A stretch of DNA of 64,000 nt from an uncultured Pseudomonadota bacterium (GTDB taxonomy: Bacteria > Myxococcota_A > Polyangia > Fen-1088): the NCBI GenBank assembly GCA_963779495.1, contig CAVZYM010000004.1, positions 735,205-799,204 of the forward strand, in the 5' to 3' direction. The position numbers and the translations under genes were made by a program. Numbering within the stretch: position 1 is the first letter of the stretch; each line of letters starts with the position of its first letter. Shown one piece after another: positions 46,764-64,000 of this stretch. Under the pieces are notes generated by a model that had not been told where the DNA came from, did not search any database, and was given only the letters and a program-made list of their open reading frames with translations.

Positions 46764-49700
46764 GTGATCCGGCTCTGCTATTCGAACCGGCTCGAGGCGC
46801 TGCTCGACGCGCTGGCGGAGCGGATAGCGGACGCCCGCCACAGCCTGTTCGATCCGGTTCGGCTGGTGGTGCCGAACCCGCTCGTCGAGGGGCGGGTCAA
46901 GGAGGGGCTGGCACGGCGGCTGGGCATCGCGGCGAACGTGCAAGCCCGCTTTCTTCATCACTTCCTGCGCGACGTCGCCGCCGCGAGCGCGCCCGGGATC
47001 ACGATCGTCGACCGCGAGGCGATCGAGCTCGAGCTGCTCTCCCTCTTCCACGATCCAAGACGGCTGCGTCTCGCGCGATCTCGAGGCGGTGCGGGGATAT
47101 CTGGGCGACGCGGCGGAGCGGGACGCCGAACGGGCCGGCCGTGACCGGCGCCGCGTCCAGCTCGCGGGCGCGCTCGCCGAGCTGTTCGACGGCTACGCCT
47201 TCTCGCGCCCCGACATGCTGGCCGCCTGGCGCGAAGGGCGCCTCGCCGACGGCCCCGACCCCGCCCTGCAGCGCTGGCAGCGTGAGCTCTGGCTGGCGCT
47301 GTTCGGACGGCAGGGGGTGTTCGCCGGGCGCGGCGCGGTCACCCTCGCCGGCTACTTCGAGAAGGCCGCGCTGCAGCCCGGCGCGCCCGCGCTTCCGACC
47401 TCGGTCCACATCTTCGGCATGTCGTTCAGCGCCAAGCTCTATCGGGGCATCTTCGCGTCGCTGGCCCGGGCGATGGAGGTCGACATCTACGCCCTCAACC
47501 CCTGCCGCGAGTTCTGGGAGGATCTGGCGCCGCGCCGGCGCCGCGGCGCCGAGGCGCGCTTCCCGCCGCGCCGCGCGAAGCGGCAGCTGACGTTGGCGCT
47601 CGATGCGACTCGTTCGCCGCGCCGCCGAACGCTCGTCCGCTCTTCGCCGCCGAGGCTGACGATCCCCCGCTGCTCGACACTCTGGGGGCGGCCGGGACGC
47701 GACAACATCCGGCTGCTCAACGACATGTCGGACTGCACTTCGACGAGCGCTACGTCGATCCCGTGGCCGGCGAATCCGCGCCTCGGCCCACGCTGCTGGC
47801 GACGTTGCAGCAGGAGATCCTCGACCGCGCGCCCGGCCGCCGCCCGCTCGCGACACCTCCGACGGCAGCCTCGTGATCTTCCCCGCGCCCGATCCGCGCC
47901 GCGAGCTCGAGACGGTGGCCGCGGAGATCTGGGCCCGGCTGCGCGCCGAGGCGCAACCGGCGACACGACGCGCCCGCCGCTGCGGTTCAGCGACTTCGCG
48001 ATCATCGTCCCGCCCGCGGCGGCGCGCCACCTATCTGCCGCTCGTGCGGGCGGTGTTTCACGAGGCCTCCGACCTCCCCCACACCGTCGTCGATCTGCCG
48101 TCGCCGGCCGAGCGCCAGATCCTCGACGCCGTCGAGCTGTTGCTGGCGCTTCCCGACGGCGCGCTGGGGCGCCGCGAGCTGCTGCGGCTGGCGATGCACC
48201 CGGCCGTCGCGGGCCGCTTCCCCGACGTCGATCCGGCCGACTGGCCGGCGCTGTGCGAGGCGCTGACGATCGTGCGCGGCGCCGACGGCGACGATCACGT
48301 GGGGAGCTACCTGGATCAAGACAGGGTCAGCTGGGACCAGGGGCTGCGGCGGCTGGCGCTGGGGGCGTTTCTCACCGGCCCGCGCAGCGGCGAGGAGCGG
48401 CCGTTCGAGCTCGACGGGCAGCCGCTGCTGCCGGCCGAGCTCGGGCCGGCGACCGAGCCGGCCGCGCGGGCGCTGGGCGAGACCGCCCGCGCGCTGATCG
48501 CGTTCGCCCGCACGGCCGCGGCCGCGCCGGCGCCGGTGGCCACGTTCACGACGCTGCTCCGGCGGACGATCGCGGAGACGCTCCGCCCCGCGCCCGAGGA
48601 CGAGGCGGCGCTGGGGGCCTGCTTCGCCGCGCTCGATCGGCTGGCCGAGACCGCGCCCGCCGAGCTGATCGTGAGCTTCCGCGTGGTGGCCGAGCTGGTC
48701 CGCGCCCGGCTCGGCGGCGGGGGCGGCCACCCGCGCGCGCCCGAGGGGGTGACGGTCTCGACCTTCGCGCCGATGCGCGCGCTGCCGTTCCGGATGATCT
48801 TCGTCGTCGGCCTCGACGAGGGGGTCTTCCCCGGCAGCGACCGGTTCGGCAACCTCGACCTGCGCGAGACCGACCGCCGTCCCGACGACGTCACCCCGCG
48901 CGAGCAGGACCAGTACCTGTTCCTCGAGACGCTGCTCGCCGCGCGCGAGCGCCTGACGATCTCGTACGTCGCGCGCGACGCGGTGACCGGCGATGCGCGG
49001 GGCCCGTCGTCGGTCGTGCTCGCGCTGCAGGCGGCGCTGGCCGGCTGCTCCCGAGGCGAATCCGGAGCCGGTGCTGGTCGGCCCGCCGGACCGCCGCTGG
49101 CCCGCCACGCCGACGACGCCGCCTGCGCGGTGATCCCGGCCGCCGCGCGCGAGCGTCAGGCCGACGCGCTCGGGCGCTCGCTGCGCCGCGCGGCCGCCGC
49201 GGTGCAGCTGCCCGGGCTCGGCGAGCTGAAGGGCGATGCTGGCGCCCGAGGCCTGGGCGGCGCTCGCGCCGCGCCTCGGATGGCTGGGGCCGGGAACCAT
49301 CGCCGCCACGACCGACGCGCCGGCGCGCACGCTGACGCTGGCCGACCTGCGGCGGTTCCTCGAGTGTCCGCTGCAGGGCTCGGTCCGCGCGCTGCTGCCG
49401 ATGCGGAGACGACGATGGGTCGGACGAGGCCGAGGCGGCCCTCCGCGAGAACGAAGAGCTCGACGAGACCCGCATCGAAACGGTGCCGATGCTGCGCGAG
49501 CTGTTCGCGCAGGCGTTGCGCGCCGGCGTCCCCGACGACGACGCGCTCGCCGAGCGTTACGACGAGGTCGCGAGCCTGCGCCGTCTCGCCGGCGCGCTGC
49601 CCGCCGGCTTGTTCGGCGCCGCTACCCGCGCGCGGCATCTCACTACGCTCCGGGCCTGGCGCGATGGGCTGCAAAGGACGCCGAGAAGACGACAGGGATC

Positions 49701-50365
49701 GAGCTCTCGGGGCCGGTCACGCTGGCGCCGATCTGGTTCGGCGCCGCGCCCGAACACCGGCGCGGCGTGCGTCTCGAACCGGCGTTGGCGCTGGCGCCGC
49801 GATCGACGCGGGGGCGGCGAGCGGCCTTCACGGGGGGACCGAGCTCGTCGCGGAGCTCGGCCGGCGTGCGCACCGCGGTGATCCTCGGCTCGTCCCGCAA
49901 CGACGACTACAACGATGTCATGCGCCACCTGATGCGCGGCTGGCTCACCCACGTGGCGCTGGCCGCCGCCGGCATCGGCGCCGACCAGCCGCTGGCGGTG
50001 CTGTCGCTCCGGGCCGACAAGACGGGCGAAGCGCGCGCCAAGACCGAGCGTCTGGCGCCGATTTCGGCCGCCGACGCGCGCGCGCTACCTCGGCGCGCTC
50101 GCCGCCGAGCTGGACGACGTTCACCCCTACCTTTTGCCCTGCGAGGGGATCTTCACCTGGCGCCGCCGGCGGGCGAAGCCCGATGCGCTGCGCGTGCGCG
50201 ACGCCGTGCTGCTGGTCTGCTACGACGGCTACACCCGGATCGCCTCCGAGTACGGCCCGGTGCCCGACGCGCGGCAGTACCCGGTGCCGGGCCATCCCGA
50301 CGCCGACGCGATCCTCGCCCGTCGGTTTGCACCCGATGTTCGCGGCCCTGGGAGACCCGCCGTGA
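46764..50365 (+). pseudogene. recC: Exodeoxyribonuclease V gamma subunit RecC, multiply frameshifted
   Basis: N-terminal MIRLCYSNRLEALLDALAERI...LVVPNPLVEGRVKEGLARRLGIAANV resembles E. coli RecC (MLRVYHSNRLDVL...). It continues through ORFs 47089-49335 and 47873-50365 (VHIFGMSF, VSTFAPMRALPFRMIFVVGLDEGVFP). Confidence 0.8.
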
Positions 50366-53300
50366 GCCGCTATCCCTTCCCCGCCGAGCTGCTGGCGATC
50401 CCGCGCGATCGCTCGGCGGTCATCGAGGCTTCGGCCGGAACCGGCAAGACCTTCCTGATCGAGCACCTGGTGGTCGATCGCCTGCTGCGTGGTGGCGTCC
50501 GCCTCGACGAGATCCTGGTCGTGACGTTCACCGATCGCGCGACCGCCGAGCTGGTGCAGCGGATCCGCGCGCTCATCGCCAAGCTGCGTCGCCACGACCA
50601 GGAGACCCCGGGCGAGCCGGCCTGGCTCCTCGACGACGGGGCGCGGGCGCGGCTCGCCGCCGCCGAGCAGGCTGTCGACGGCGCGCCGATCTCGACCATC
50701 CACGCGTTCTGCCGCCGCATCCTGACCGAACACGCGTTCGCGAGCGGCCGCCTGCTCGCCCAGCAGAACGTCGAGAGCCGGACCGCGTTCTCGGCGGCGT
50801 TCCACGAGACCCTGCGCGATCGACTGGCGATCGATCCCGAGCTCGCGCCCCTACCTGTCGGCCTGGCTGGAGGAGGCGGGGGACGTGCGGCGTCTCGAGG
50901 AGCTCCTCTACAAGGTGCGCCAGCTGCGCAGCGACTGGGGGATCAGCTTCGATCCCCAGGCGCTGGCGATCGCGGCCGAAGCCGTTCGCCGCGCTGCCGA
51001 AGGCCGAGGTCGACGCCGCCGTCCGCGCCGCTGCGGGCGCCAAGTCGATCAAGGCCATCGCCACGCGCCTCGAGAAGCTGCGGACCGCCACAGCGACCTT
51101 CGTGGCGAGCACGCGACGCTGCGCGGCTGCTCGCGGCGATCGACGAGCTGGTCGCCGAGTCGAACAGCCTGTTCACCTACCTCGCCTCCAAAATCGACCG
51201 CAGGAACCCGCGCGTCGCGGCCCTGGTCGCCGCTCTCGACGCGCTCGCCGACGCCGCGGTTCCGCTCGCGACGGCGGTCGCCCAGCGGCTGGGCCCGCCC
51301 GTCGTCGAACGGCTGGCTGCCCGTCAGCGCACCGCCGGCCGCTACGACTTCGACGACATGCTGACGCTGGTGCGCGACGCGCTGGGCGGCCCGCGCGGCC
51401 CCGCCCTGGTCGCGACGCTGCGCGCGCGCTACCGGCTGGCGATCATCGACGAGTTCCAGGACACCGATCCGATCCAGTGGGAGATCTTCCGGACCATGTT
51501 TCAGGACAGCGCGGGGGAGAACCCGCTGTACCTGATCGGCGACCCCAAGCAGTCGATCTACGGCTTCCGCGGCGCCGACATCGCGACGTACAACAACGCC
51601 TGCGCCACCGTGGCGCCGCCCGCGGCGGCGATCCGCCTCAGCCGCAACTTCCGCTCCACCCCCGCGGTCATCGACGGCTACAACGCGATCCTCGATCCGC
51701 GGGCGCACTCCCCCTTCTTCAACGAGGGGGTGAGCTACCACCCGGTGACGAGCGGACGGCGGCAGACGGCGAGCACCGCGGTCGAAACCAGCCCACCCGT
51801 CGTCCTTCTGCGTGTGACCGCCGCCGAAGACGTCTCACAGCTGCCGATGCGCGACGTCCGCGCCACGCTGGCGCGCGCGATCGCCGACGAGATCGCCGCG
51901 CTGCTCGCCGGCCCGCGCCCGCCGCCCGCGCGCGAGATCTTCGTCCTGACCCGCACCCGCCGCGAGTCCGACGACGCGGCGGCAGCCCTGACCGCGCGCG
52001 GCGTCCCCTACGTCATCTACAACCAGGAGGGGCTCTACGAGACGCCCGAGGCGCGCCACGTCCGCGACCTGCTGCACGCGATCGCCGATCCGCACGATCC
52101 GGAGAAGCGCCTGCGCGCCTAGCTCTCACCGTTCTTCGCCATCCCCCTCGCCGAGCTGCCCGCGGCGGCGCGCGCAGGCGGCGCCGATCCGCTGGCCGAG
52201 CGGCTGCTCGACCTGGCACGCCGCCGCCCGGGCCGAGGATCTCGCCCCGCTCTACGCCCGCATCCTCGACGACAGCGGGGTGCTCCGGCGCGAGCTGTTG
52301 CTCGGGGAGACCGCTCGCCGCGCGACCAACTACCAGCACCTGTTCGAGATCCTGATCGCCGACGCGGCCCGCGCCACGCGCCCGCTCGGCGACGTCGCGC
52401 GCTGGCTGGCGGCGCGGGTCGCGGGGCTCGAGGTGCCGCTGCCCGAGGAGGGGAACGTCCTGCGCGTCGAGGGGGAGCGCGACGCGGTACGGATCATGAC
52501 GACGCACAAGGCCAAGGGGCTGGAGGCCGACGTCGTCTTCGTCTACGGCGGTTTCGGCAACGCCCCCTCCGACCGCGTGCGCACGCTACCTGGAGAACGG
52601 CCGCCGGGTGGCGATCGCTGGCCGGCCCCGGACCGACGAGCTGATCGGGCGCATCAGGCACGAGCGCGACGCCGAGGACCAGCGCCTCTACTACGTCGCG
52701 CTGACCCGGGCCCGGAAGCGCCTCTACCTCCCCTACTCCGGCACCGCCCCCGAGGACGAGCCCGACGGCAATGGCCTCCAGGAAGACCTCTGGAAGCTCA
52801 CCGGCGGCTACCGCCACGTCAACCAGCGGCTGCGCGCGCTGCTGATCGAGAACCGGGCGGCCGGCTGTTCCGCACCGTCGACGTTCCCGTGATCGACGGC
52901 GCGGCCGGCGCGCGGGCCGCGACCGCCGCCGCCGCGATCGCCGCCTGGCGCCCAGCCCCAGCCGACGCTCGCGCGACGTGACGGCCGATCCGCGCGCTGG
53001 CCGCGCTGCGCGTCCGCCGCGCCGGCACGACGCCACACCTCGTACAGCCGGATCAAGGCGGCCCACGGCGGCTACCGCCCGCCCGAGCGAGCTCTCGGAC
53101 GAGGTCGTGGATCCGCTGCCGGCGCTGGCCGCGGACGATCTCCCCGGCGGCGCGCGCTCCGGGATCTTCCTGCACGCGCTGCTCGAGCAGCTGCCGCTGC
53201 CGGCCGCGGTCGGAGAGCCGGCGCTGGCGGCCTGGAGCGCGCGCGACGACGTCCGTACCGTCATCGAGGCCGCGCTTGCGCCGGCACGGCCGCGAGCCCC

Positions 53301-53807
53301 GCTTCTTCGACGCGGCGGCCCGGCTCGCGCACGCCGCGCTGACCGCGCCGCTGCCCGTGGTCGGCGGGACGCTCGACGGGCTCGGACGCGCCGACCGCGA
53401 CGCGCGCGCGAGCTGGAGTTCCTGTTTCCGTTCCCGGCCGGCGCCGGCGGCGCCGATCGCGGCTTCGTCAAAGGGTTCGTCGACGTCATCTTCGAGCACC
53501 AGGGGCGCACCTACTTCGGCGACTGGAAGACCGATCGCCTGCCGGCCTGGGAGGAGGCGGCCGTCGACGCCGCACGTCGACGCCAACTACGGGCTGCAGG
53601 AGCGGCTCTACTCGCTGGCGCTGGCGCGCATGCTGGGGATCGAGGACGCCGCCGCGTACGAGGCCCGCTTCGGCGGCACGCTCTACATCTTCCTGCGCGG
53701 GCTCCCCCATGGCGCCGCGGTGCGCAGCCGGCGGCCGAGCTTCGCCGATCTCCAGCGCTGGCGGGCCGAGCTGGTCGAGACGCTGGCCCCCGCGGAGGTT
53801 GCAGTGA
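50362..53807 (+). pseudogene. recB: Exodeoxyribonuclease V beta subunit RecB (UvrD-type helicase + PD-(D/E)XK nuclease), frameshifted
   Basis: The GTG at 50362 overlaps the recC stop (GTGA). Motifs VIEASAGTGKTF, TIHAFC, IIDEFQDTDPIQWEIF, LIGDPKQSIYGFRGAD, SRNFRS, TTHKAKGLEADVVFV, YYVALTRARKRLYL, and the nuclease FVKGFVDVIFEHQGRTYFGDWKTD. The 3' boundary is uncertain. Confidence 0.8.
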
Positions 53808-55668
53808 GCACCGCCCGGCCGCCCTCGGCTTCGTCGTCGTCCCTTTGGCCCCCGACCTGGGCGCGCGGGCTGGGGGCAGGCGACGCCGGGCCCGAAGCGC
53901 TCTACCTCGCCTGCGAGGCGGCCGGCTGGCCCGCGGGGCTGGCCGACGGCGAACGGCGCGCGTTCGCGCTGGTGGTGCTGGCTCTCCTCGACGCCCGGCA
54001 GCAGGGGGCAACGCGGCTCCTCCTGGCGAAGCTCGACGCGCGCCTGGCGCGGCTCGGCGTCGACGAGGCCGGAGCGCGCGGCGGCGGTCGAGCTGGCCGC
54101 GACGCTGGCGACGCGCCCCGCGCTCGCGCCGCTGGTCGGGCGTCCGGGCGACTACAAGCCGTTCATCATCGACGGTGGCTGTCTCTACTCCGAACGCGAT
54201 CTGCGCCTCGAGGAGCAGCTCGCCACGGCGCTGGCCGGTCGCCTGCGGGCCTCGCCCCTGGCCGTTCCCGCGGCGGCGCTCCGTCCCGGCGTCGCCCACG
54301 GGGTTCAGCTGGACCAGCGACCAGGCCGCGGCGATCGAGGCGGCGCGCCAGCGCCCGTTCGTCGCCATCTCGGGGGGCCCGGGCTCGGGCAAGACCGCGG
54401 TCATCGACGGCATCGTCCGGGCCTGGCGCGCGCTCGGGCTCGCGCGCGACCAGATCGCGATCGCCGCGCCGACCGGCAAGGCCGCGAACCGGATCGCCGA
54501 GCTGCTGCCGCCGGACGCGCCGGCGCCGCTCACCTTGCACCGGCTGCTCGGGTACGCCGTCCGCAGCCCGGGCGCGCCGGTCGGCGATTTCCGCCACCAC
54601 GAGAATCATCCGCTCCCCCACGCCGCGGTGATCGTCGACGAGGCGTCGATGGTCGGGCTGGCGCTGATGAGTCAGCTTCTCCGCGCGCTGCGCGCCGACG
54701 CGCGGCTGGTGCTGATCGGAGACGCCGATCAGCTCCCCGCCGTCGAGATCGGCAACATCCTCGCCGAGCTCCGCCCGCAGGCGCTCCACCTGGGCGGGAG
54801 CCACCGCATGAACCCCGCCGATCCGGCCGGCGCGGCCGTGCTCGAGGCGGCCAGCGCGATCGCCGCCGGCGAGCTGGGGGGCCACGGCACGCCCCCCGTG
54901 CCCAGCGCCGCCGAGGTCGGCGACGCCGGCTTCCTCTGTCTCGAGCCTGCCGACGGCGGCGGCCCCGCGGCGCGCCGGCTGCTGAGCGAGCTCCTGGAGC
55001 AGTGGCTGGCGCGCCGGCTGTGCGTCGCCAGCGGTTTCGACCCGGTCGCCGCGGGCCGGCGTACATTCCCGATCGGGGACGGTCGGTTACGATCCGACGA
55101 CATCACGACGCTCGCAGCGCTCCTGGCCCATCACGCGCGCGTCCGGGTGCTGACCGTCACGCGCGCCGCCGCCGACCGCGTCAACGAGACGCTGGTGCGG
55201 CGGTTGTCCGCCGGCGACGGGTCGGCTTCCGGCCCGTTTCCGCCCGGGACGCCGGTGATGATGACGCACAACGACTACGACCGCGGCCTCTACAACGGCG
55301 ATCAGGGAATCATCGTACGCGTCGCGAGCCCGGGAGGCGGCACCGACCTGGCGGCGCTGTTCGCGCGTGGCGAGCGGCTGACGCCCTACCCGCTCGCCAG
55401 CCTCGACGGAGCGCTGGCGATCGCCTACGCGTCCACCGTACACAAGGCGCAGGGGAGCGAGCTCGACCATGCCGTACTGGTTCTCCCCGAGAGCGACTCC
55501 CCGTTGCTGTCGCGCGAGCTCGTTTACACGGCGGTAACGCGCGTCCGGCGCTCGATCGTCGTCGTCGGGCAGCGGGCCCTGCTGGCGCGCGCCGTGGCCC
55601 GCCCGCTCGATCGATCCTCGGGCCTGCGTGACCGACTGATCGCCCGCGGCGCGATGCCTCCAGGGTAA
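53804..55668 (+). pseudogene. recD: Exodeoxyribonuclease V alpha subunit RecD (N-terminal third frameshifted, rest intact)
   Basis: QAAAIEAARQRPFVAISGGPGSGKT, AAPTGKAANR, VIVDEASMV, LIGDADQLPAV, YASTVHKAQGSELDHAVLVLP, YTAVTRVRRSIVVVG. The start is placed at GTG 53804 by analogy with other 4-nt overlaps (low certainty). Confidence 0.78.
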
Positions 55669-55819
55669 CTCCCCCTCGGCGTTCGGATTACGCGCCGGTA
55701 ACAGCTACGTGAACAAGGCCGGGGTCACCCCCGCGGCACTGAGCTTGCATTTCCCCGGAGCTGCCTGGGGGTCGACGAGCTTGGCTTCAACTTTTTTCTA
55801 CGTAGCCGGAGGTCCTGAC

Positions 55820-56685
55820 ATGGGTGGCGTCGTCGAGTCTGCGGTTCCTCAAGTCGCGTCGAGCAGCGATCCTTACCATCACGAGCGTCGCTTTCTGCTG
55901 ACAAGGTCCCAAGCCGCGGCGTTCTTTGCGGCGGTCGCGCGTCACACCGCGATCGAGACGTACGACGAGGGTCGGCCGATCTCGTACACCCGGACCACCT
56001 ACTTCGACACCGACGACCTCGACTACTTTCATTCCTGCTCCGGCCCCAACGCCTGCCGGCTGCGGGTGCGCGAGTACGCCACCGCCGCCTCGCTCGAGGA
56101 CGCGCCGGTGCTCTCCGCGCTGGCCTTCCTGGAGCTGAAAGCAGAACCACGGCGCCGATCGGGCAAAGCTGCGCGTGACCGCGCCCCCCGCCGTACTCCG
56201 GCAGCTGATCCAGCGCCGCGAGCTGCCTGCCCTGCCCGGCGAGCTCGCTCTCGCTCGACGGTGACCTCGAGATACTGCGAGCGGCGCTGACTGAGCCGAC
56301 GCTGGCGCCCCGGCTCACCACCTGGTACCGGCGTGCCTGTGTGACCGGCGAAGGGAAGCGGGTCCGCATCACCTTCGACGAGAACCTGAGCTTCTGCCGC
56401 CCGCGGCCGGTGAACCGCCTCGGAACCGACATCGGTATCGAGGTGGCGCCCCGACCCAACGACGTCGTCGCCGCCGGGCCGCCGCGGGTGCTGGAGATCA
56501 AGTACTGGGACGACCTGCCGGGCTGGCTGGCGGGCGCCGTCGCGGCTCTCAGGCCGGCGGCCCACTTCTCGAAGTTTCGGGTCGGGATGATCGCCCTGGC
56601 CCGGAAGGCGATCGTCCCCGAATTCGACGCCGCCACTCAGGAGCGCGCCACCGCCCGGTTCGCGCTCACCGCGCGACAGGCCTAA
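55820..56685 (+). pseudogene. VTC-domain (polyphosphate-polymerase-like) protein, frameshifted
   Basis: GGAGG lies 8 nt before ATG 55820. Motifs HHERRFLL, ISYTRTTYFDTDDLDYF, CRLRVREY, AFLELK. The C-terminal part is in ORF 56341-56685 (KRVRITFDENLSF...VLEIKYWD). Confidence 0.7.
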
Positions 56686-56706
56686 CCGAACGAGGGCACA
56701 CCGAAC

Positions 56707-58424
56707 ATGTTCATCGTCTTCGAAGGGATCGACGGGAGCGGCAAGACCACCATCTCCAACCGCGTGGCGGCCGAGCTGCGCGGGCGCGGGCTGACAGTGG
56801 AGCACCTCCGCGAGGGGGGCGCGTTCGCCTCGCGCGGTAACGCAGGGGATCCGCGACTTCTGCCGCGACGCCCGCAACCTGGCGCTCACGCCGCGGGCCG
56901 AGCTGCTGATGTACGTGGCGCGCGAAGTGCAGCTCGCTGATGAGGTGCTCAAACCCGCGCTCTCGTCGTGCCGACGTCGTCATTGCCGATCGTTACTTCT
57001 ACACCGCCGAGGTGCTGGCCCGTGCGGGCCGGGACCTGGCCCGGGAGGCGGTCGACCCGATCGTCGACAGCCGGCGCCGCGGGGCTCTGGCCCGAGCTCG
57101 CCTTTCTGATCGACGTCGACCCATCGGTCGCGCGGGGGCGGCGCAAGGTCGCCAAGATCCTGATGCCCGACCACCGCCCGGGGTCGCGCAAGGGGTTGAC
57201 CGGCGGCGGGCTCCAGCAAAAGCTGCGCGAGGGCTACCGCGCGCTGGCCGCCCGCGATCCGGACCGCTGGATCGTGGTCGACAACAGCGACGCCGACCTC
57301 CAGCAGGTGATCGACTGGGTGGTGTCGAACATCCTGCGGGCGCGCGAAGCCGGCGCCGTCGCGGCCGGCGGCCTCGCGATCGCGCCCGCCCCCACGCCGC
57401 CGCCCGACACCGCGAGCGAGCCGATCGCGGATCCCTTCGCGGCGCCGCGACACCTTCCTGGCCTGGGTCGATCGACGCAGTGGGCGCGAGCCCCTGCTCG
57501 CCGCCTACGTCCTGGCCGGGCTGTCGGGCGCCGGCGTCGACGAGCGGCGCCAGGCGCTCGTCGGGCGGGCGCCGCGGGTGATCGCCCGCGGGCTGAAGGG
57601 ACTGTCCGACGCGGTGTCGTGGCAGCTCCGCCGGCGGCTGCTCGACGCCGCCCCGCAAGAGGTCGCTGCATCGCTGGTCGAGGCCGCCGCCGAGGCCAAC
57701 GAGGCCTGGGCGTTGCGCGAGATCCTGAGCGACGTCGCGCCCGCCGAGGTGGCCGCGAGCCTCGAGGGGCTCGACGACGAGACCGCCTGGGCGTTGCGCG
57801 ACGATCTCTATCCGCAGTCGCCCGACGCCGTCCTGATGTCGCTGGCGCTGCTCGATACCCCGCGGTCCTGGGAGATGCGCGAGCGCTGGCTGCGCGACCG
57901 CGGCGGCGCGGAGGCGGCGGTCTCGGGCTACGTGGCGGCGCGGGCCGTCGCCCGCGCGGTGACGGGGCTCGAAGGGGAGCAGGCCTGGGCGCTGCGCAAG
58001 GCGGCGCGCGTCTACTCGCCGGTGGCGGCCCTCACCTCGCTGCGCGGCCTCGGCAGCGACAAGGCCTGGCACTGGCGCGAGGGGGCGCTGGGGCTCGCGC
58101 CCAAGGCGGTGCTGGGGACGATCGCGGGGCTCGACGATCCGCGCAGCTGGCAGATGCGGCTCGCAGACCGCGCCGCGCTGCCGCGAGGCGCTCGATTCGA
58201 TGCTCGGCCTCGACACCGAGGTCGGCTGGGAGATCCGGGAGGCGTGCCTGATGCTCTGGCCCGCCAGCGTGGTGAAGAGCCTCGGCGTTCTGGTCAACGG
58301 GCCGCGCGGCGCCGAGCTGCTCCGCACCGCGCTGGCCGCGTTCCCGCGCAACATCACCTTGCTCAAACACGCCACCGCGATCGCCCTCGGCGCGCACCTG
58401 GCCCCCACCGTGCTGGCGGCCTGA
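56707..58424 (+). pseudogene. Thymidylate-kinase-like P-loop kinase fused to a long helical-repeat C-terminal domain, frameshifted
   Basis: [42 protein letters not shown]. From about 57560 there are ~30-aa repeats of the type L.GL.D..AWALR....P..V..SL (ORFs 57578-58441 and 58200-58424). Confidence 0.65.
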
Positions 58425-58427
58425 GCC

Positions 58428-59099
58428 ATGCCTATCGGTGAAGTGACGGAGACATTGGGGCTGAACAGCCTGGACCTGGGGCGGTTCGAGGTGGTGCTGC
58501 TGCGCCTCCTCGCCGCGGCGGGGCTGGGCGCGTTCCTCGGCTATCGGGTCTGGCGCCGTTTCCTGCCGCGGACGCTGCCGCCGTCGCGCGAGATCGCGCA
58601 GGCCCAGATGCTGATCGCGATCGCCGGCGCGCTGATGGTCATCGTCATCGGCCAGAGCACCGCCCGCGCGTTCGGGCTGGTCGGCCTGGGCGGCTTCATC
58701 CGGTTTCGCTCCGGCATCCGCGACACCCGCGACGCCGCGGGGATGTTCGTGATGATCGGCGTCGGCATGGCCTGCGGGCTGGGCGCGGTGCCGATGGCGG
58801 TGGTGGCCACGCTGTTCGTCAGCGCGATCATGGCCGTGTTCGACGCCGGCCGCCGCGGGCGGATGAAGATGACCCGGCTTTCCCTCCACGTGCTCGAGCC
58901 GCGCGTGGCCTGGCAGCGCATCCAGCTCGCGTTCCCGGGGGCGCGCGTGCTGGAGCTGCCGGCCAACGAAGAGGGGACGCTGCTGATGGAGACGGCGCTG
59001 GGGGAGAGCCTGGACGCCGGGGGCGTGCTGCAGCTGATGGAAGAGAAGCAGGTGCCGGGTGTCCGCGGCGTCACGATCGAAGAGGGAAAAGGGGGGTGA
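58428..59099 (+). CDS. DUF4956-family membrane protein
   Basis: 223-aa intact ORF with 3-4 TM helices and the family signature GLGGFIRFRSGIRDTRDAAGMFVMIGVGMACGLG, followed by a soluble C-terminal domain. It starts 3 nt after the upstream stop. Confidence 0.7.
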   Translation: MPIGEVTETLGLNSLDLGRFEVVLLRLLAAAGLGAFLGYRVWRRFLPRTLPPSREIAQAQMLIAIAGALMVIVIGQSTARAFGLVGLGGFIRFRSGIRDTRDAAGMFVMIGVGMACGLGAVPMAVVATLFVSAIMAVFDAGRRGRMKMTRLSLHVLEPRVAWQRIQLAFPGARVLELPANEEGTLLMETALGESLDAGGVLQLMEEKQVPGVRGVTIEEGKGG

Positions 59100-59103
59100 C
59101 GAT

Positions 59104-59832
59104 ATGGGACGTGGGGTTATTGCGACTTGCTTGACGATACTGGCGGCGGGGGCAATCGCCGGCTGCGGCGGCGGGAGTGACACCAGCGGGACGGGCGGCG
59201 GCGGGGCGACCACCGGCAGCGGCGGCAACGTCGGTACGCCCGGAACCGGCCCCTATCAGCCGCTGGCCGTCGGCGCGACCTGGAGCTATCACGTCGACGA
59301 CCAGGGGGTCACGTACGACAAATCCAGCTCGGTCGAGACCCAGGAGGACCTCGGCGGCGCCAAGGCCGGCATCTCCGGCTTCAAGGTCCGCGAGACGGTC
59401 AAGGAGGCCATCCAGCTGACCTGGTACCAGGTGGTCGACACCGGCGTGGTGCGCCACCACGACCAGATGCAGGACCAGAGCGGTCAGATGCTGAGCGACG
59501 AGTGGTACGACCCGTACCTGCTGCGCACCGACGAGACCACCGACCACCTTCAGGCGGGCGCGACCTGGTCGGTGACCTACAACAACACCAAGACGACGAC
59601 GACCAAGCCGACCGCCACCGTCGCCCACACGGAGACCTGGACCGTCGAGGCGATCGACGACGCGGTCACCGTCCCCGCGGGCAGCTTCACCGCGCTGAAG
59701 GTCACCCGCAGCGATCCGTCAGATGGCTCCCTCAAGACGCAATGGTTCGTGCGCGGCATCGGCAAGGTCCGCGAGCAGACCGGGGCGGGCCACAACGAGG
59801 AGCTGACCGGCTACCAGGTGCCCGCCCAATGA
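59104..59832 (+). CDS. Hypothetical lipoprotein
   Basis: MGRGVIATCLTILAAGAIAGCGGG lipobox and a Gly-rich linker. Intact. The stop overlaps the cotH start (ATGA at 59829-59832). Confidence 0.65.
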   Translation: MGRGVIATCLTILAAGAIAGCGGGSDTSGTGGGGATTGSGGNVGTPGTGPYQPLAVGATWSYHVDDQGVTYDKSSSVETQEDLGGAKAGISGFKVRETVKEAIQLTWYQVVDTGVVRHHDQMQDQSGQMLSDEWYDPYLLRTDETTDHLQAGATWSVTYNNTKTTTTKPTATVAHTETWTVEAIDDAVTVPAGSFTALKVTRSDPSDGSLKTQWFVRGIGKVREQTGAGHNEELTGYQVPAQ

Positions 59833-61358
59833 CCCGGGCCCGGCTCCTCGCGGCGCTGGCCCTGGTCGGGCTCGGGTGCGGCGACGATGCCCGGGTGCAG
59901 TCCGGCATCGTCCCGACGGGAGCCGCGGGCGAGACCACCGGCGCCGCCGGCGGTCCCAGCGGCGCCGGCGGCGATACCGGTCTGGCGCCGACCGGCGGCA
60001 TGACCGGCACCGATCCGGGGCCTCCGCCCGTCCTCACCGCCGCCGGGTTCGCCAAGGCGCCCCACTGCGAGGACATCTTCGGGCAGGTCCTGCAGACCTT
60101 CAGCATCGACATCAGCGCCGACAATTGGAACGCGATGCACGCCGAGTACGTCTCCGTCGCGATGGGGACGCCGGGGGCCCTCGAGGCCCACGAGTCCGTT
60201 CGCTACCCGATCGTCTTCCACTTCGGCGCCGACACGAAGGCGGCGACCATCCGTCTCAAGGGCGAGTCGTCCTGGCAGTCGTCGTACGTCCTCGACGGCG
60301 ACGGCGGAAAGATGCAGTTCGCGGTCTCCTTCGACGACACCGATCCCGACGCCCAGTTTCACGGCGTGAGCGGTCTCGCGCTGGACATGCCGCCGAACGA
60401 CGACACCTTCCTGCGAAGCCGCATGGCCAACGCCTGGCTGCGGTCGATCGGGATCCCGGGGTTCTGCTCCACCAGCGCTCGCCTGTTCGTCAACGGCGAC
60501 TACTACGGGCTCTACGCCGCCGAGGAACGGGCCGGGCATCATTACCTGCGCGAGTTCTTCCCGGACAACCCGCTCGGCGATCTTTTCAAGTCGGGGTGGG
60601 AGGCCGAGACCAACGAGTCGAACCCCAACCGGGATCGGCTGCGGCAGTTCTGGGACGTCGACAGCCCGGGTGACCTGGCGGCGATCGTCGACATCCCGCG
60701 CTCCCTGAAGTCGTGGGCCGCCGAGGCGATCTTGAACGACGGGGACGGCTACTGGGGCGGCGGCCACAACTTCCTGATCTACGACCAGGGCGGGCCAGGC
60801 TACGTCTTTCTCCCGTACGACCTCGACGCGTCGCTGGGGTACCTCCGTCACTTCACCGGCGATCCGATCTTCTGGTGGGCGACGCGCGGGTACGTCGGCG
60901 AGGTCGGCCAGCACTACAAGGTCGTCCTCGACGATCCAGACCTCCGGGCCCAGTTCGTCGAGGCGATCGCGACGGCGGCGGCGGCCTTCGATCCCGCGAC
61001 CATCCAGTCGTGGTTCGACGCCTGGTCGGCCCAGATCCGCGACGCGGTGAGCGCCGACCCGCACCGGCCGTCGATGACCAGCCTCGACGACTTCGACGAC
61101 GCGATCGCGCTCGGCCGCGGCGGGATGGCCAAGCGCGCCGACTTCCTGCGTGACTGGGTGGCCTGCAAGCACGACGGCAGCGGCGCCGACGCCGACAACG
61201 ACGGCTACCGCTTCTGCGAGGACTGCCGCGACGACAAGCCGGGCATCAACCCGGGGGCGTCCGAGGTCTGCGGCAACGGCGTCGACGACAACTGCAACGG
61301 CCGGTTCGACGAAGGCTGCGCACCACCGCCACCGCCGACACCGCCCCCGACGATGTAG
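59829..61358 (+). CDS. CotH-family atypical kinase lipoprotein with C-terminal MopE-type Cys/Asp motif
   Basis: Lipobox LALVGLGCG. CotH motifs IRLKGESSWQ, LFVNGDYYGLYAAEER, GDLFKSG, GHNFLIYDQ, LPYDLDASLG. C-terminal DNDGYRFCEDCRDDKPGINPGASEVCGNGVDDNCNGRFDEGC. Confidence 0.8.
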   Translation: MTRARLLAALALVGLGCGDDARVQSGIVPTGAAGETTGAAGGPSGAGGDTGLAPTGGMTGTDPGPPPVLTAAGFAKAPHCEDIFGQVLQTFSIDISADNWNAMHAEYVSVAMGTPGALEAHESVRYPIVFHFGADTKAATIRLKGESSWQSSYVLDGDGGKMQFAVSFDDTDPDAQFHGVSGLALDMPPNDDTFLRSRMANAWLRSIGIPGFCSTSARLFVNGDYYGLYAAEERAGHHYLREFFPDNPLGDLFKSGWEAETNESNPNRDRLRQFWDVDSPGDLAAIVDIPRSLKSWAAEAILNDGDGYWGGGHNFLIYDQGGPGYVFLPYDLDASLGYLRHFTGDPIFWWATRGYVGEVGQHYKVVLDDPDLRAQFVEAIATAAAAFDPATIQSWFDAWSAQIRDAVSADPHRPSMTSLDDFDDAIALGRGGMAKRADFLRDWVACKHDGSGADADNDGYRFCEDCRDDKPGINPGASEVCGNGVDDNCNGRFDEGCAPPPPPTPPPTM

Positions 61359-61391
61359 CCCGGCGGTGTACGATGCGCGCAAGACGCGCGC

Positions 61392-62255
61392 ATGGTCAGC
61401 CGAGCTCGATCCGTCACCGTCGTCGCGTTCGGGCTCACGCTGCTGCTGGCGGGCGACGCGTTCGCGCTCGACAAGCAAGGGAGCGCCCACGGCGGCGCGG
61501 CGGGCGGCGCGGACGAGGGCGGCTTCGCCATCTCCGGCGCGGTGATGCTGGGCGTCTCGCTGATCAACAGGTCGTACGCGGCCCGCCCCGACAACACCGG
61601 CCTGGCGCTGATGCGCTACGCCGCCCACGCCGACGTCGACATCCTGGGGCGCAAGCTGTCGATCCCGCTCGACGTCAACATGTTCTCCGACAAGGAGCGT
61701 GAGGGCCTCGCCAAGCTCTCCCCCACCGAGCTCGACCTGATCGCCGGCCTGACGTCGACCTGGAACGCCGGGCCGGGGGCGATCGAGCTCGGGACCCGGG
61801 TCGAGCAGGACCGGCCTGTGGATCACGACGGCCCCTCCCAGACCTACGCCGACGTGCGCGCCCGCTACCTGCTGTCGCTGCGCGACGCGAGCGCCGCCTT
61901 CGCCAGCCGCTTCCCGCACACCAACGTCAGCGGCTGGGCGACGCTGGGCTGGTTCGCCTACAACAAGACCTACTTCGCGCGCCCCGACAACACCGGTCTG
62001 GCGCTGTTCCGCTACGGGCTCCATGGCGAGCTGGCGGTCTTCGACGGCCGGCTGGCGTTCGCCCTGGACGCCACGATGTTCTCCGACAAGGAGGCGGCCA
62101 ACAAGCTGCGCCCCTCCGAGCTCGACCTGACGCCGGAGATCATCGCCCGCCGGGGTTCCTTCGAGCTCCACCTGGCCTACGAGCACGACATGCCTGTCGA
62201 TCAGGACAGCCTCGTGCAAAGCTTCCTGTACCTGCTGGGAGCGTGGGCGTTCTGA
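61392..62255 (+). CDS. Outer-membrane beta-barrel protein with internal duplication
   Basis: Signal peptide ...LLLAGDAFA. There are two homologous halves (ARPDNTGLAL(M/F)RY...MFSDKE...L.P(T/S)ELDL). C-terminal LLGAWAF. Confidence 0.6.
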   Translation: MVSRARSVTVVAFGLTLLLAGDAFALDKQGSAHGGAAGGADEGGFAISGAVMLGVSLINRSYAARPDNTGLALMRYAAHADVDILGRKLSIPLDVNMFSDKEREGLAKLSPTELDLIAGLTSTWNAGPGAIELGTRVEQDRPVDHDGPSQTYADVRARYLLSLRDASAAFASRFPHTNVSGWATLGWFAYNKTYFARPDNTGLALFRYGLHGELAVFDGRLAFALDATMFSDKEAANKLRPSELDLTPEIIARRGSFELHLAYEHDMPVDQDSLVQSFLYLLGAWAF

Positions 62256-62299
62256 TGACACGGACAACGCGACAGCGCGGCGGCGCGTCTAGACCAGAC

Positions 62300-63609
62300 A
62301 TGAAGAACCGACGCGTGATGATCCTGATGGCCAGCGCGACCACCCTTGCGGCGTGTGGCGGCGGCGCGGCCGGCACCGGCGGCGGCACCTACTGGCAGGA
62401 CGTCGCGCCGATCTACTACGACAAGTGTGTCCGCTGTCACCAGGAGGGGGGATCGCCCCCTTCCGCCTCGACACCTACGCCGAGGCCCGCGCCCACGCGG
62501 CCGCCGAGGCGCGCGAGGTGGAGGCCGGGACCATGCCCCCCTACTTCATGGTCCACGACGGCAGCTGCGGGTCATTCCACGACGAGACCACATTGACGGA
62601 TGCCCAGAAGGAGACGGTCGTCGCCTGGGCCCGCGGGGCACGCGCCGAGGGAACGCCGGTGACGCTCCAGCTCCCGGCCAAGCCGGCGCTCCCCGACGCG
62701 CAGTCGGTCTCGACGCCGCTTTTCGCGCCGACCCCGCAAGGGGGACAGCTGGCCGAGTTCGACGAGTACCGCTGCTTCGCGCTCGACGTCCCCAACGCCA
62801 GCGACGGGTTCCTGATCGGCTACGACGTCCTCCCCGGCGACGCGACGATCATTCATCACGTGATCGGCTTCGTCGTCGATCCGGCGAAGGTGCTCGACGG
62901 CGCGGGGCACACCAACGCCGACGCGATCCAGGCGCTCGACGGCGAATCTCCCGACAGGCTCGGCTGGCCCTGCTTCGGCGGCGCGGGCGACGGCCTCGAC
63001 GTCGACGGCGTCCCGGTCACCTGGGCGCCGGGCCAGGGGATCGTCGAACTACCCCGCCGGGATGGGGGCCCCGATCAAGGCGACCGACAAGCTGGTGGTC
63101 CAGGTCCACTACAACCTGGCCGACCCCGCCTCGGCCGGAAAGACCGACAGCACGACGGTCCAGCTCCGGTTCGCGCCCACCGTCGACCGCGAGCTGCGCT
63201 TCCTGCTCCCCGATCCGTTCCTCGACAGCCTCGGCGCGGCCGTTCCGGCGTCGCTGCCGCCCGGGAAGGCCAACACCAAGTACACCTGGACGCGGACCGG
63301 GAACCAGGTCGGCGTGCCGTCGTCGGGCGTGGACCTGATCGCGGTGATGCCGCACATGCACGGGCGCGGCCTGCGCCAGACGATGACGTTCGGCCCCGAT
63401 GGCAACAGTCCTGCGTCTCGCACATCGAGGGCTGGGACTTCCACTGGCAGGAGGTCTACTTCCTGACCACCCCGCTCGCGATGACGCCGTCGACGCGGAT
63501 TCAGGTCACCTGCGAGTACGACACCTCGATGGACACCGAGGCGGTCCTCCCGGGCTGGGGGACGCGCAACGAGATGTGCCTCAACATCCTGATCGTCGCG
63601 CTGCCCTAG
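62300..63609 (+). pseudogene. Lipoprotein with N-terminal CXXCH motif and PHM/DBH-like copper monooxygenase fold, frameshifted
   Basis: Lipobox TTLAACGGG and CVRCH. Then IIHHVIGF (HH site), VMPHMHGRG (HxH site) and NEMCLNILIVALP (Met ligand region), spread over three frames. Confidence 0.6.
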
Positions 63610-63618
63610 CAGGCGGCT

Positions 63619-64000
63619 CTCACGATCCTACACATCTTGCCGGCTGATCCCGGCTGTGATCCTCTGCGGGCATGCCCCGCAAGCGCGTGGAGGTTCCAGT
63701 CCTTTCGGCGGAGTTCAGCGACGCCGACCTTGGCGATGTAAGGCTGAATCGACGACTCGGACTTCTGGCTGATCGGCTCGGAGAGCGGCCCGGCGAGAGC
63801 TTTCCAAAGGCGTTGGACGACGCTGAGTTGGAAGCGGCGTACCGCTTTTTTGGCAATGACAGCGTTTCGCCGGAAGCCATCTTGGCGCCCCACTTTCGGC
63901 AGACGGCTCGCCGCGCAGCGAAGCATGGACGGGTGCTGGTCATCCACGACACGACCCAGTTCGAGTTCCCGGGCAATTCGAAGCGCGAGGGACTAGGTCG
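63619..64000 (+). mobile_element. IS4-family (IS50/Tn5-like) insertion sequence, left end and 5' part of the transposase; continues beyond the window
   Basis: GC drops after 63610. CTCACGATCCTACACATCT (63619-63637) matches 12 of 19 positions of the Tn5 outside end as I recall it. The transposase ORF starts at 63672. Confidence 0.6.
63672..64000 (+). CDS. IS4-family transposase, N-terminal DNA-binding region (partial)
   Basis: MPRKRVEVPVLSAEFSDADLGDVRLNRRLGLLADRLGERPGESFPKALDDAELEAAYRFFGNDSVSPEAILAPHFRQTARRAAKHGRVLVIHDTTQFEF. The pattern LGD.R...R, AYRF..N..V and (I/V).DTT matches the Tn5 transposase N-terminus. It is absent from the ORF track because it runs off the window. Confidence 0.7.
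   Translation, partial: MPRKRVEVPVLSAEFSDADLGDVRLNRRLGLLADRLGERPGESFPKALDDAELEAAYRFFGNDSVSPEAILAPHFRQTARRAAKHGRVLVIHDTTQFEFPGNSKREGLG

Follow-up and report, generated by a model that had tools for sequence, protein, structure and literature searches.

A seven-gene operon of an uncultured soil myxobacterium (Polyangia, Myxococcota) is built on an ancient, strictly conserved four-gene module. The operon occupies positions 55820–63609 (plus strand) of a 64,000-nucleotide stretch of contig CAVZYM010000004.1 (hereafter the window, ~72% G+C). It encodes, in order, a VTC-domain protein, a dTMP-kinase-like P-loop domain fused to helical repeats (Tmk::repeat), a DUF4956 inner-membrane protein, a lipoprotein, a CotH-type kinase, a secreted protein (gene 6), and a PHM-like copper monooxygenase. 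On the basis of gene order and comparison with related genomes, the locus is a real operon, headed by a predicted sigma-54 promoter, in which genes 1–4 are the conserved module and genes 5–7 a lineage-specific extension. A sequence-only reading of the window had described a triad of VTC, DUF4956, and CotH expanded with envelope components. For Polyangia, this description is inverted, with genes 1–4 as the core and CotH, gene 6, and the PHM-like gene joined to it only in the window and one related locus (L001).

The genes are separated by 21, 3, and 4 nucleotides (nt), an ATGA overlap between genes 4 and 5 (59829–59832), and a further 33 and 44 nt; all starts, stops, and spacers are as previously claimed. 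This close packing leaves no space for internal promoters and supports co-transcription of the seven genes. The domain assignments also hold in Pfam searches, with matches to VTC (PF09359, 3.8e-22, 79 bits), Thymidylate_kin (1e-16), DUF4956 (3.5e-10), CotH (1.4e-22, 81 bits), and Cu2_monoox_C (1e-12, 48 bits). The VTC and Tmk proteins lack a signal sequence, DUF4956 has ~5 transmembrane helices, and a Sec signal is present in gene 6, whereas the signals of genes 4, 5, and 7 are of the lipoprotein type. The proposed cytoplasm-to-outer-membrane layout is therefore plausible from signals and helices, with gene 6 as a possible outer-membrane barrel.

Conservation of the four-gene module

The arrangement is not due to chance, since the independent contig L001, which has the full set of seven genes, is collinear with the window over 51829–63606 (79.6% nucleotide identity). 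The juxtaposition is thus not unique to this genome, a possibility that the sequence-only reading had raised against itself. To extend the comparison, 87 related Polyangia loci were gathered via DUF4956 homologues at 55–90% identity, and in the counts below the denominator is the number of loci long enough to show the feature. Upstream of DUF4956, VTC and the two parts of the Tmk fusion are present in 33/33 loci, and recD lies directly upstream of VTC in 25/25. The gene 4 lipoprotein follows DUF4956 in 58/59 loci at a spacing of a few to tens of nt. In contrast, CotH is the next gene on the same strand after the core in 1/29 loci (L001), and gene 6 and PHM follow the core in 1/18. Among the neighbors whose co-occurrence had been raised as a question, the Tmk-like gene is therefore a constant companion, while gene 6 and PHM are not.

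The conserved unit in Polyangia is, as judged from these counts, VTC, Tmk::repeat, DUF4956, and the lipoprotein, with CotH as a newcomer. VTC, DUF4956, and CotH do occur together in the window, where they lie on the plus strand within 55820–61358 and are interleaved with two other genes. They are not, however, inherited together across Polyangia. In 42 Polyangia CotH::MopE loci (40–57% identity), neither VTC, DUF4956, nor any other of the six remaining genes is found within 10 kb of CotH, bar one nonoperonic PHM homologue (L024). The CotH genes of Polyangia form a multigene family, of which the two best-sampled metagenome-assembled genomes (MAGs) have as many as five copies. The most divergent core locus (L158) has a convergent CotH gene (2150–2875, minus strand) right after its gene 4 homologue. 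This CotH belongs to a different subclade (87% identical to P0021 and 53% to the window CotH) and marks a second, independent juxtaposition of CotH and the core.

Neither the operon nor its conserved flanks contain a polysaccharide synthase or glycosyltransferase in the eight Polyangia loci with gene tables. Outside this group, DUF4956 is not invariably paired with VTC, as the annotated DUF4956 gene of the Hymenobacter volaticus plasmid NZ_CP095062 (L167, 6866–7534) has no VTC or CotH neighbor. A TolC-family gene lies downstream of it, and the upstream genes are unannotated.

A predicted sigma-54 switch and its link to CotH

Two promoter blocks emerge when the recD–VTC spacers of 14 loci are aligned. 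The first, GGCAC-N5-TTGCA at 55735–55749 (plus strand), is a sigma-54-type −24/−12 element located 71 nt before the VTC start codon, and its columns are invariant in the alignment (GGCAY-N5-TTGCA). Its GG/GC spacing of 12 agrees with the consensus for sigma-54. It is the sole strict match to GGCAY-N5-TTGCW on both strands of the 64 kb, and the element is found at the equivalent position before VTC in 32 related loci. It is thus a putative sigma-54-dependent promoter heading the operon. The second block is an upstream-activator-like near-palindrome, ATTACGCGCCGGTAAC (ATTAC-N5-GGTAAC), at 55687–55702 (plus strand), which is nearly invariant in the 14 spacers and occupies the same place in 29 other loci; its chance expectation in the window is 0.05. 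It precedes the −24 element by 48–79 nt, start to start. Half or near copies of the site are found at 55664–55669 (GGTAAC, overlapping the recD stop codon) and at 55523–55538 (TTTACACGGCGGTAAC).

In 19 loci, a dCache histidine kinase and an NtrC-type protein (response regulator, sigma-54 activator, and HTH_8) are encoded convergently downstream of the core. Of the 13 loci whose sequence extends 10 kb or more downstream, 11 contain the pair, and the activator is 72–97% identical between loci. The pair is not in the window, which ends at 64000.

The same signals connect the operon to CotH. A search of 1.81 Mb of collected sequence for the near-palindrome no more than 120 nt ahead of a sigma-54 element gives 34 matches, of which 30 precede VTC operons, four precede CotH genes (L003, L006, L009, and L010), and none lie elsewhere. 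In the CotH-type pair, the palindrome is inverted (GTTACC-N5-GTAAT) and located 57–59 nt before GGCAY-N5-TTGCT, with the start of the lipoprotein CotH ~85 nt further on. The pair is present in 5/6 members with upstream sequence of the CotH subfamily nearest the window CotH (53–57% identity), with one mismatch in L005. This sharing of an activator site and sigma-54 element suggests that the VTC operon and the closest stand-alone CotH paralogues form one regulon. It further suggests that, in the window lineage, CotH was captured by the operon and no longer has a promoter of its own.

More remote CotH paralogues retain the sigma-54 element but not the palindrome. Across L002–L043, GGCAY-N5-TTGCT lies ~50–350 nt upstream of the CotH match start in ~30/37 CotH::MopE paralogues. 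The strict GGCAY-N5-TTGCT motif occurs 31 times in 661 kb, nearly always at CotH genes. Because the element is directly upstream of so many paralogues, the expanded CotH::MopE lipoprotein-kinase family as a whole appears to be sigma-54-controlled. No orthologous activator is found beside the CotH loci, where the only activators are generic (38–49% identity).

A hairpin at 55768–55788 falls within the predicted leader, and an Rfam scan of 55400–64000 returns one sub-threshold snoRNA chance match and no riboswitch in the leader. A scan for sigma-70 promoters and terminators is uninformative, with no promoters and three terminator-like sites versus 2.5 expected.

Proteins of the core module

Gene 1 (55820–56685, plus strand) encodes a Vtc4-like triphosphate-tunnel protein of ~287 residues after frame correction, in line with intact orthologues of 277–298 residues. 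It is preceded by a GGAGG ribosome-binding site (55807–55811). The protein is predicted to be cytoplasmic, since Pfam finds a VTC domain only, with no SPX domain, and there is no transmembrane segment. A PDB search with the single sequence gives no match; a profile is required, and that of 22 orthologues matches 3g3q, the catalytic domain of yeast Vtc4 (7.9e-11). Orthologues have invariant tunnel residues (R-x-R, ELK, K, Y-x-R, R, LExK, and SK), and these align with those of 3g3q. The PDB alignment misses strand β1, for which the motif is E-x-R-[FY] in 21/21 Polyangia sequences versus E-x-K-Y in Planococcus. The β1 lysine corresponds to the catalytic lysine K200 of the yeast enzyme.

Gene 2 (56707–58424, plus strand) encodes a predicted cytoplasmic protein of ~570 residues in which a dTMP-kinase-like P-loop domain (residues 1 to ~200–210) is fused to eight helical repeats of ~27 residues each (~290–520). 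The fusion is one intact open reading frame (ORF) of 565–587 codons in 37 loci. The score of 83.4 bits against TIGR00041 places it at the border of the dTMP-kinase equivalog (cutoff 83.25), and the domain profile matches solved thymidylate kinases (3e-23). Its P-loop and DRY motifs are invariant among orthologues. In a PADLOC scan of genes 1–6, no defense-system membership is obtained, and only the Tmk-like domain gives matches, as a generic P-loop kinase (PDC-M51B, 5.7e-11; VakA, 2.5e-06).

The repeats follow the pattern P.AV..SL.GLDD..AW.LR, have no Pfam match at E ≤ 0.01, and the C-terminal half of the protein has no PDB match. They resemble HEAT or PBS-lyase-type repeats solely in their ~27-residue periodicity and L.D..W.[LM]R motif. 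Homology to the HEAT protein of Planococcus was considered and is not claimed because the similarity is not significant in BLASTP or hhalign (probability 0.1%). The C-termini of the fusion in the window and in 37 orthologues all read [VTI]-[ML]-A-A (TVLAA at 58404–58424 in the window), and several VTC orthologues terminate in [IF]VAA. Such ends resemble the ClpX-recognized LAA-COOH motif of the ssrA tag, and they may point to regulated proteolysis of both proteins.

Gene 3 (58428–59099, plus strand) encodes a 223-residue DUF4956 protein with a weak match to MgtC. Hydropathy indicates ~5 transmembrane helices, which are followed by a C-terminal β-α-β-β-α-β (ACT-like) domain. Approximately 100 residues of the transmembrane region are nearly invariant among 27 homologues, and the ratio of nonsynonymous to synonymous substitution rates (dN/dS) between the window and L001 is 0.10.

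Gene 4 (59104–59832, plus strand) encodes a 242-residue lipoprotein with a lipobox (IAGC) and a Gly-rich linker; signal peptide and lipobox are present in orthologues with a readable N-terminus. Its AlphaFold2 model is a 12-strand all-β domain with a predicted local distance difference test (pLDDT) score of 86 overall and ~96 at residues 50–240. Foldseek returns only weak matches, to YmcC-like 3fzx (E 9e-4, TM-score 0.45–0.51) and to LolA/RseB half-barrels. The model is suggestive, but not diagnostic, of a carrier-type barrel of the LolA/YmcC/DUF3108 kind.

The lineage-specific extension

Gene 5 (59829–61358, plus strand) encodes a probable lipoprotein of 509 residues that combines a CotH kinase domain with a C-terminal, cysteine-rich metal-binding motif of the MopE type (Cu-binding_MopE, 3e-9). 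Its profile matches CotH of B. cereus (5jd9, 8e-14), with the DG..HN..D.D residues aligned, as well as MopE (2vov). All 32 homologues compared retain D306, N314, and D333. The dN/dS value versus L001 is 0.34 for CotH and 0.40 for gene 6, and the range of 0.34–0.40 for genes 4–6 indicates purifying selection.

Gene 6 (61392–62255, plus strand) encodes a secreted protein of 287 residues that carries a Sec signal (AFA|LD) and contains two copies of an internal repeat. It has no match in Pfam, NCBIfam, or PADLOC and belongs to a small family of 153 representative clusters among 1.84 billion, none with an annotation. The duplicated unit reads NPxYAARPDNxGxALxRY ... PSExD, and the cleavage site AxA|LDKQG is conserved. 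The earlier assignment as an outer-membrane barrel does not stand as given, considering that a Pfam match is lacking and that the C-terminal phenylalanine is not the last residue in most homologues; a barrel is a possible fold for this sequence.

Gene 7 (62300–63609, plus strand) encodes a lipoprotein (lipobox LAAC) of ~435 residues with an N-terminal CXXCH cytochrome c-like motif and a PHM/DBH-like copper monooxygenase. In addition to Cu2_monoox_C, Pfam gives a Cu2_monooxygen match (2.6e-6, 28.1 bits) that is under the cutoff of 30. Alignment to human DBH (4zel, 8e-9) pairs all six copper ligands (HH..H..HxH..M). An intact cytochrome c::PHM-like orthologue of 442 residues (66% identity) is encoded at L024 15080–16408 and served as the reference for frameshift mapping of gene 7. 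This gene follows a CotH paralogue at a distance of 4 kb, with opposite-strand genes between, and is the only other case of CotH–PHM proximity found. A recurrent module of CotH, gene 6, and PHM was considered and rejected, as L024 alone has PHM near CotH and does so in a separate operon.

Downstream, the N-terminus of a Tn5/IS4-type transposase (63660–64000, plus strand; Tnp_DNA_bind, 1.4e-19) is a boundary marker outside the system. It begins 50 nt past the PHM-like stop codon, where the collinearity with L001 stops (63606). Elsewhere in the window, a cysteine-rich protein of 707 residues (42030–44150, minus strand) has repeated CxxxxDDDCDG-type motifs that resemble the MopE-type motif of the CotH C-terminus. 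Pfam gives only weak, sub-threshold matches to CarboxypepD_reg (1.6e-06) and GBD_IRG7_N (3.7e-04) and none to MopE, and no connection of this protein to the operon is seen.

Frameshifts as probable assembly errors

Of the seven genes, DUF4956, the gene 4 lipoprotein, CotH, and gene 6 are clean ORFs. The VTC, Tmk fusion, and PHM-like units are 866, 1718, and 1310 nt long, none of which is divisible by three, and all three genes are frameshifted, which the sequence-only reading did not report. Frame plots of G+C at third codon positions (GC3) together with a frameshift-aware dynamic-programming alignment of the DNA to intact orthologous proteins locate 10 frame changes. Two are in VTC (+1 at 56138, where AA is read as AAA, and +1 at ~56211–56255) and five in the Tmk fusion (+1 at 56836, ~56964, ~57070, ~57394–57445, and 58169). 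The remaining three are in the PHM-like gene (−1 at 62453 in a G run, +1 at 63049, and −1 at 63404).

These changes are almost certainly long-read consensus errors of the assembly and not operon-specific decay, because recBCD is broken alike and, once corrected, the three proteins match intact orthologues over their full length. The upstream recC, recB, and recD genes contain at least four, six, and two frame changes, respectively, and high-GC3 coding segments are fragmented window-wide. All three corrected proteins are stop-free and retain all motifs. The relatives derive from a long-read soil MAG series, and in two sister assemblies of the same ENA series with an identical DUF4956 protein, VTC is split in one (L081) and intact in the other (L082).

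The errors are unevenly spread. Frameshift density in recBCD (48554–55668) is ~1 per 0.5–0.7 kb, and the stretch 58428–62255 has none, an error-free run that exceeds the length predicted from the density elsewhere. Patchy short-read polishing of a long-read assembly is a guess at the cause. An independent Logan contig (L169, ERR11593400) matches 58164–60011 with one mismatch and no gaps; it begins 5 nt ahead of the last Tmk frameshift. In practical terms, the three apparent pseudogenes of this MAG are almost certainly long-read consensus artifacts.

Relation to known systems

The sequence-only reading was correct in that the triad has no assigned function, but the triad itself had already been published (10.1101/768473; PMC12345266; PMC2879425). 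In Gram-positive bacteria, cotH, a polyphosphate (polyP) polymerase gene, DUF4956, and DUF4832 are accessory genes of pel loci (Whitfield et al., 10.1101/768473). Deletion of the DUF4956 or CotH homologue of S. intermedius alters Pel level and aggregation, with the mechanism left open (PMC12345266). The window shares with these accessory genes (SIR_1594-1592) the same three Pfam families in one co-directional cluster, an extracytoplasmic CotH with catalytic residues, and a DUF4956 protein with an MgtC-like transmembrane part and ACT-like tail. In contrast, the window has no pel or other polysaccharide-synthase genes, a Gram-negative host, predicted sigma-54 control, and an arginine in place of the VTC β1 lysine. 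Its triad is also interleaved with Tmk::repeat and the lipoprotein, both of which are linked more tightly to VTC and DUF4956 than CotH is.

A VTC–DUF4956–CotH cluster is also carried by NELoc-2 of C. perfringens (PMC2879425). The order on the Planococcus maritimus plasmid NZ_CP059541 is VTC, DUF4956, CotH, a ~690-residue hypothetical protein, a HEAT-repeat protein, and a glycosyltransferase family 2 (GT2)/chitin-synthase-like protein, and it is common to NELoc-2. As in the window, VTC and DUF4956 are adjacent in this Firmicute cluster, co-directional, and accompanied by CotH and a helical-repeat protein. The repeat protein of the Firmicutes, however, stands alone and is recognized by Pfam as HEAT, whereas the window repeats are fused to the Tmk-like domain. 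The window lacks a glycosyltransferase, and the Firmicute cluster lacks the lipoprotein and Tmk.

The eukaryotic VTC complex offers a homologous catalytic tunnel domain with most tunnel residues, likewise paired with a small multipass membrane protein. That complex (Vtc4 polymerase, Vtc1/2/3 channel) couples polyP synthesis to translocation. The window VTC differs in being a separate soluble protein without SPX, and its partner is DUF4956/MgtC-like and not DUF202. CotH has a kinase domain homologous to that of the Bacillus spore-coat kinase (5jd9), with invariant D..HN..D catalytic and metal-binding residues, but it is a lipoprotein with a C-terminal MopE-type motif and a member of a putatively sigma-54-controlled Polyangia multigene family. 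Similarly, gene 7 has both domains of the PHM/DBH type II copper monooxygenases and differs in being a bacterial lipoprotein with an N-terminal CXXCH module, which could act as a built-in electron donor. The promoter region resembles NtrC-type myxobacterial sigma-54 regulons in its −24/−12 spacing, upstream near-palindrome, and neighboring activator and dCache kinase; the predicted activator site is unusually near the −24 element.

On these comparisons of gene content, the VTC–DUF4956 pair and its link to a secreted CotH are general across Gram-positive and Polyangia loci. Four features appear to be Polyangia-specific and new, namely, the fusion of Tmk to repeats, the LolA-like lipoprotein, the control by sigma-54, and the neighborhood of recBCD; no description of them was found in the literature. 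Beyond the Pel papers, no functional study of CotH with polyP or in myxobacteria was found.

Proposed mechanism and alternatives

We tentatively favor a split VTC-like system in which polyP made at the inner membrane would serve proteins of the envelope, a reading that falls somewhat short of probable. In such a system, the dCache sensor kinase and NtrC-type activator would turn the operon on. The cytoplasmic VTC protein would polymerize phosphate from a nucleoside triphosphate (NTP) into polyP or a related phosphoanhydride product. The Tmk-like protein would hold VTC at the membrane through its repeat domain and bind or supply nucleotide. A DUF4956 oligomer would take the role of the Vtc1/Vtc4 transmembrane channel and pass the product to the periplasm, with the gene 4 lipoprotein as acceptor. 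CotH kinases of the same regulon would then modify envelope proteins or polymers. In the window lineage, the copper monooxygenase and a secreted partner would be additions. An extracytoplasmic output of the module is favored because the periplasmic lipoprotein is strictly coupled to it (58/59 loci) and a secreted CotH is repeatedly linked.

Several observations weigh against this system. DUF4956 has no homology to the DUF202 transmembrane domain of Vtc1/Vtc4, and MgtC, which it resembles, acts as a regulator rather than as a channel. The AlphaFold2 model of DUF4956 is of low confidence (pLDDT 61.5), too poor to judge a pore. LolA/YmcC-like folds usually bind hydrophobic ligands and not polyanions, and the fold match of gene 4 is weak. 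The β1 lysine is replaced by arginine, a charge-conserving change, in every Polyangia VTC orthologue. The role given to the Tmk-like domain is a guess, the operon lacks CotH in 28/29 related loci, and the activator protein is a candidate for the operon promoter by its proximity. No activity is reported for any bacterial VTC-domain protein in the literature found. In S. intermedius, deletion of the VTC homologue has no phenotype (PMC12345266), and the authors suggest that any polyP may stay cytoplasmic (10.1101/2024.04.20.589940).

The most credible alternative, although unlikely, is cytoplasmic phosphate or energy homeostasis. In that case, VTC would make or hydrolyze polyP or triphosphates inside the cell, and the MgtC-like DUF4956, with its ACT-like sensor domain, would in the manner of MgtC regulate a target in the membrane, for example ATP synthase or signaling of the PhoR type. 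The lipoprotein and CotH would be merely co-regulated envelope proteins. The weak MgtC match, the ACT-like C-terminal fold, and the missing homology to the eukaryotic channel domain are consistent with this view. So are the S. intermedius data, namely, the phenotype-free VTC deletion, the possible retention of polyP in the cytoplasm (10.1101/2024.04.20.589940), and the authors' reading of the homologues as phosphate-metabolism proteins (PMC12345266). However, such a role leaves aside the strict, short-spaced coupling of a periplasmic lipoprotein and the repeated linkage of a secreted CotH. A surface for transport or assembly would explain the extreme conservation of the DUF4956 transmembrane region at least as well as a regulatory role does.

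A developmental or spore-envelope program, in which sigma-54 activators drive the operon during fruiting or sporulation and the spore coat or the polysaccharide of the matrix is altered jointly by CotH kinases, the copper monooxygenase, and polyP, is distinctly unlikely as the main explanation. Control by sigma-54 and NtrC-type activators is a hallmark of myxobacterial developmental genes, and sigma-54 promoters are predicted on the operon and on most CotH::MopE paralogues. CotH is a spore-coat kinase in Bacillus, which provides one parallel, and the Pel link in streptococci provides another. In Gram-positive bacteria, the triad is located within polysaccharide loci (10.1101/768473), and the Planococcus cluster has its GT2/chitin-synthase-like gene. 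In contrast, the Polyangia loci examined have no polysaccharide synthase in or beside the operon. A spore-envelope program also concerns biological role and is compatible with either an export or a homeostasis mechanism.

A more specific version of the split VTC-like system would have the tunnel polymerase seated on a DUF4956 channel with Tmk::repeat as scaffold, polyP threaded across the inner membrane, and polyP in place of ATP as the phosphoryl donor of CotH, all within one sigma-54 regulon. We consider this full bacterial machine improbable.

Very doubtful is an assignment to nucleotide or DNA metabolism or defense tied to recBCD, whereby (d)NTPs would be substrates of the tunnel enzyme, which would work with the dTMP-kinase-like domain, and the genes for the membrane protein and the lipoprotein would be passengers. 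The constant position of recD directly upstream, the Tmk score at the dTMP-kinase equivalog cutoff, and the match of this domain to the candidate defense model PDC-M51B all point in that direction, and the lysine-to-arginine change in β1 could signal an altered substrate. However, the recD–VTC spacer holds the operon's own conserved sigma-54 element and activator-like site, Firmicute clusters pair VTC and DUF4956 without recBCD or Tmk, and PADLOC matches nothing in genes 1–6 besides the Tmk domain. The supposed passengers are also conserved as well as the enzymes.

Finally, it is scarcely credible that genes 5–7 landed by chance beside an insertion sequence element without a functional link or that the frameshifted genes are true pseudogenes, as the ten frameshifts in three genes, the adjacent transposase fragment, and the absence of CotH from 28/29 and of gene 6 and PHM from 17/18 related loci might suggest, given that the recBCD frameshifts are equally dense, the corrected proteins are full length and stop-free with motifs kept, the seven-gene order persists in L001 despite ~20% nucleotide divergence, genes 4–6 have dN/dS values of 0.34–0.40, the ATGA overlap couples CotH to gene 4, and CotH has the promoter signature of the core.

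Implications

The analysis defines a compact four-gene module whose predicted compartment order runs from the cytoplasm through the inner membrane to the periplasm. The module has a recognizable predicted on-switch, consisting of the sigma-54 element, the activator site, and a neighboring sensor kinase, as well as a cis-regulatory tie to one CotH subfamily. The association of these genes, previously known only for Pel and NELoc loci of Gram-positive bacteria, is thereby extended to Gram-negative bacteria. Together, the core, the switch, and the CotH tie make bacterial VTC function experimentally approachable. If true, the use of polyP as the CotH donor would solve how secreted bacterial kinases are powered outside the cytoplasm.

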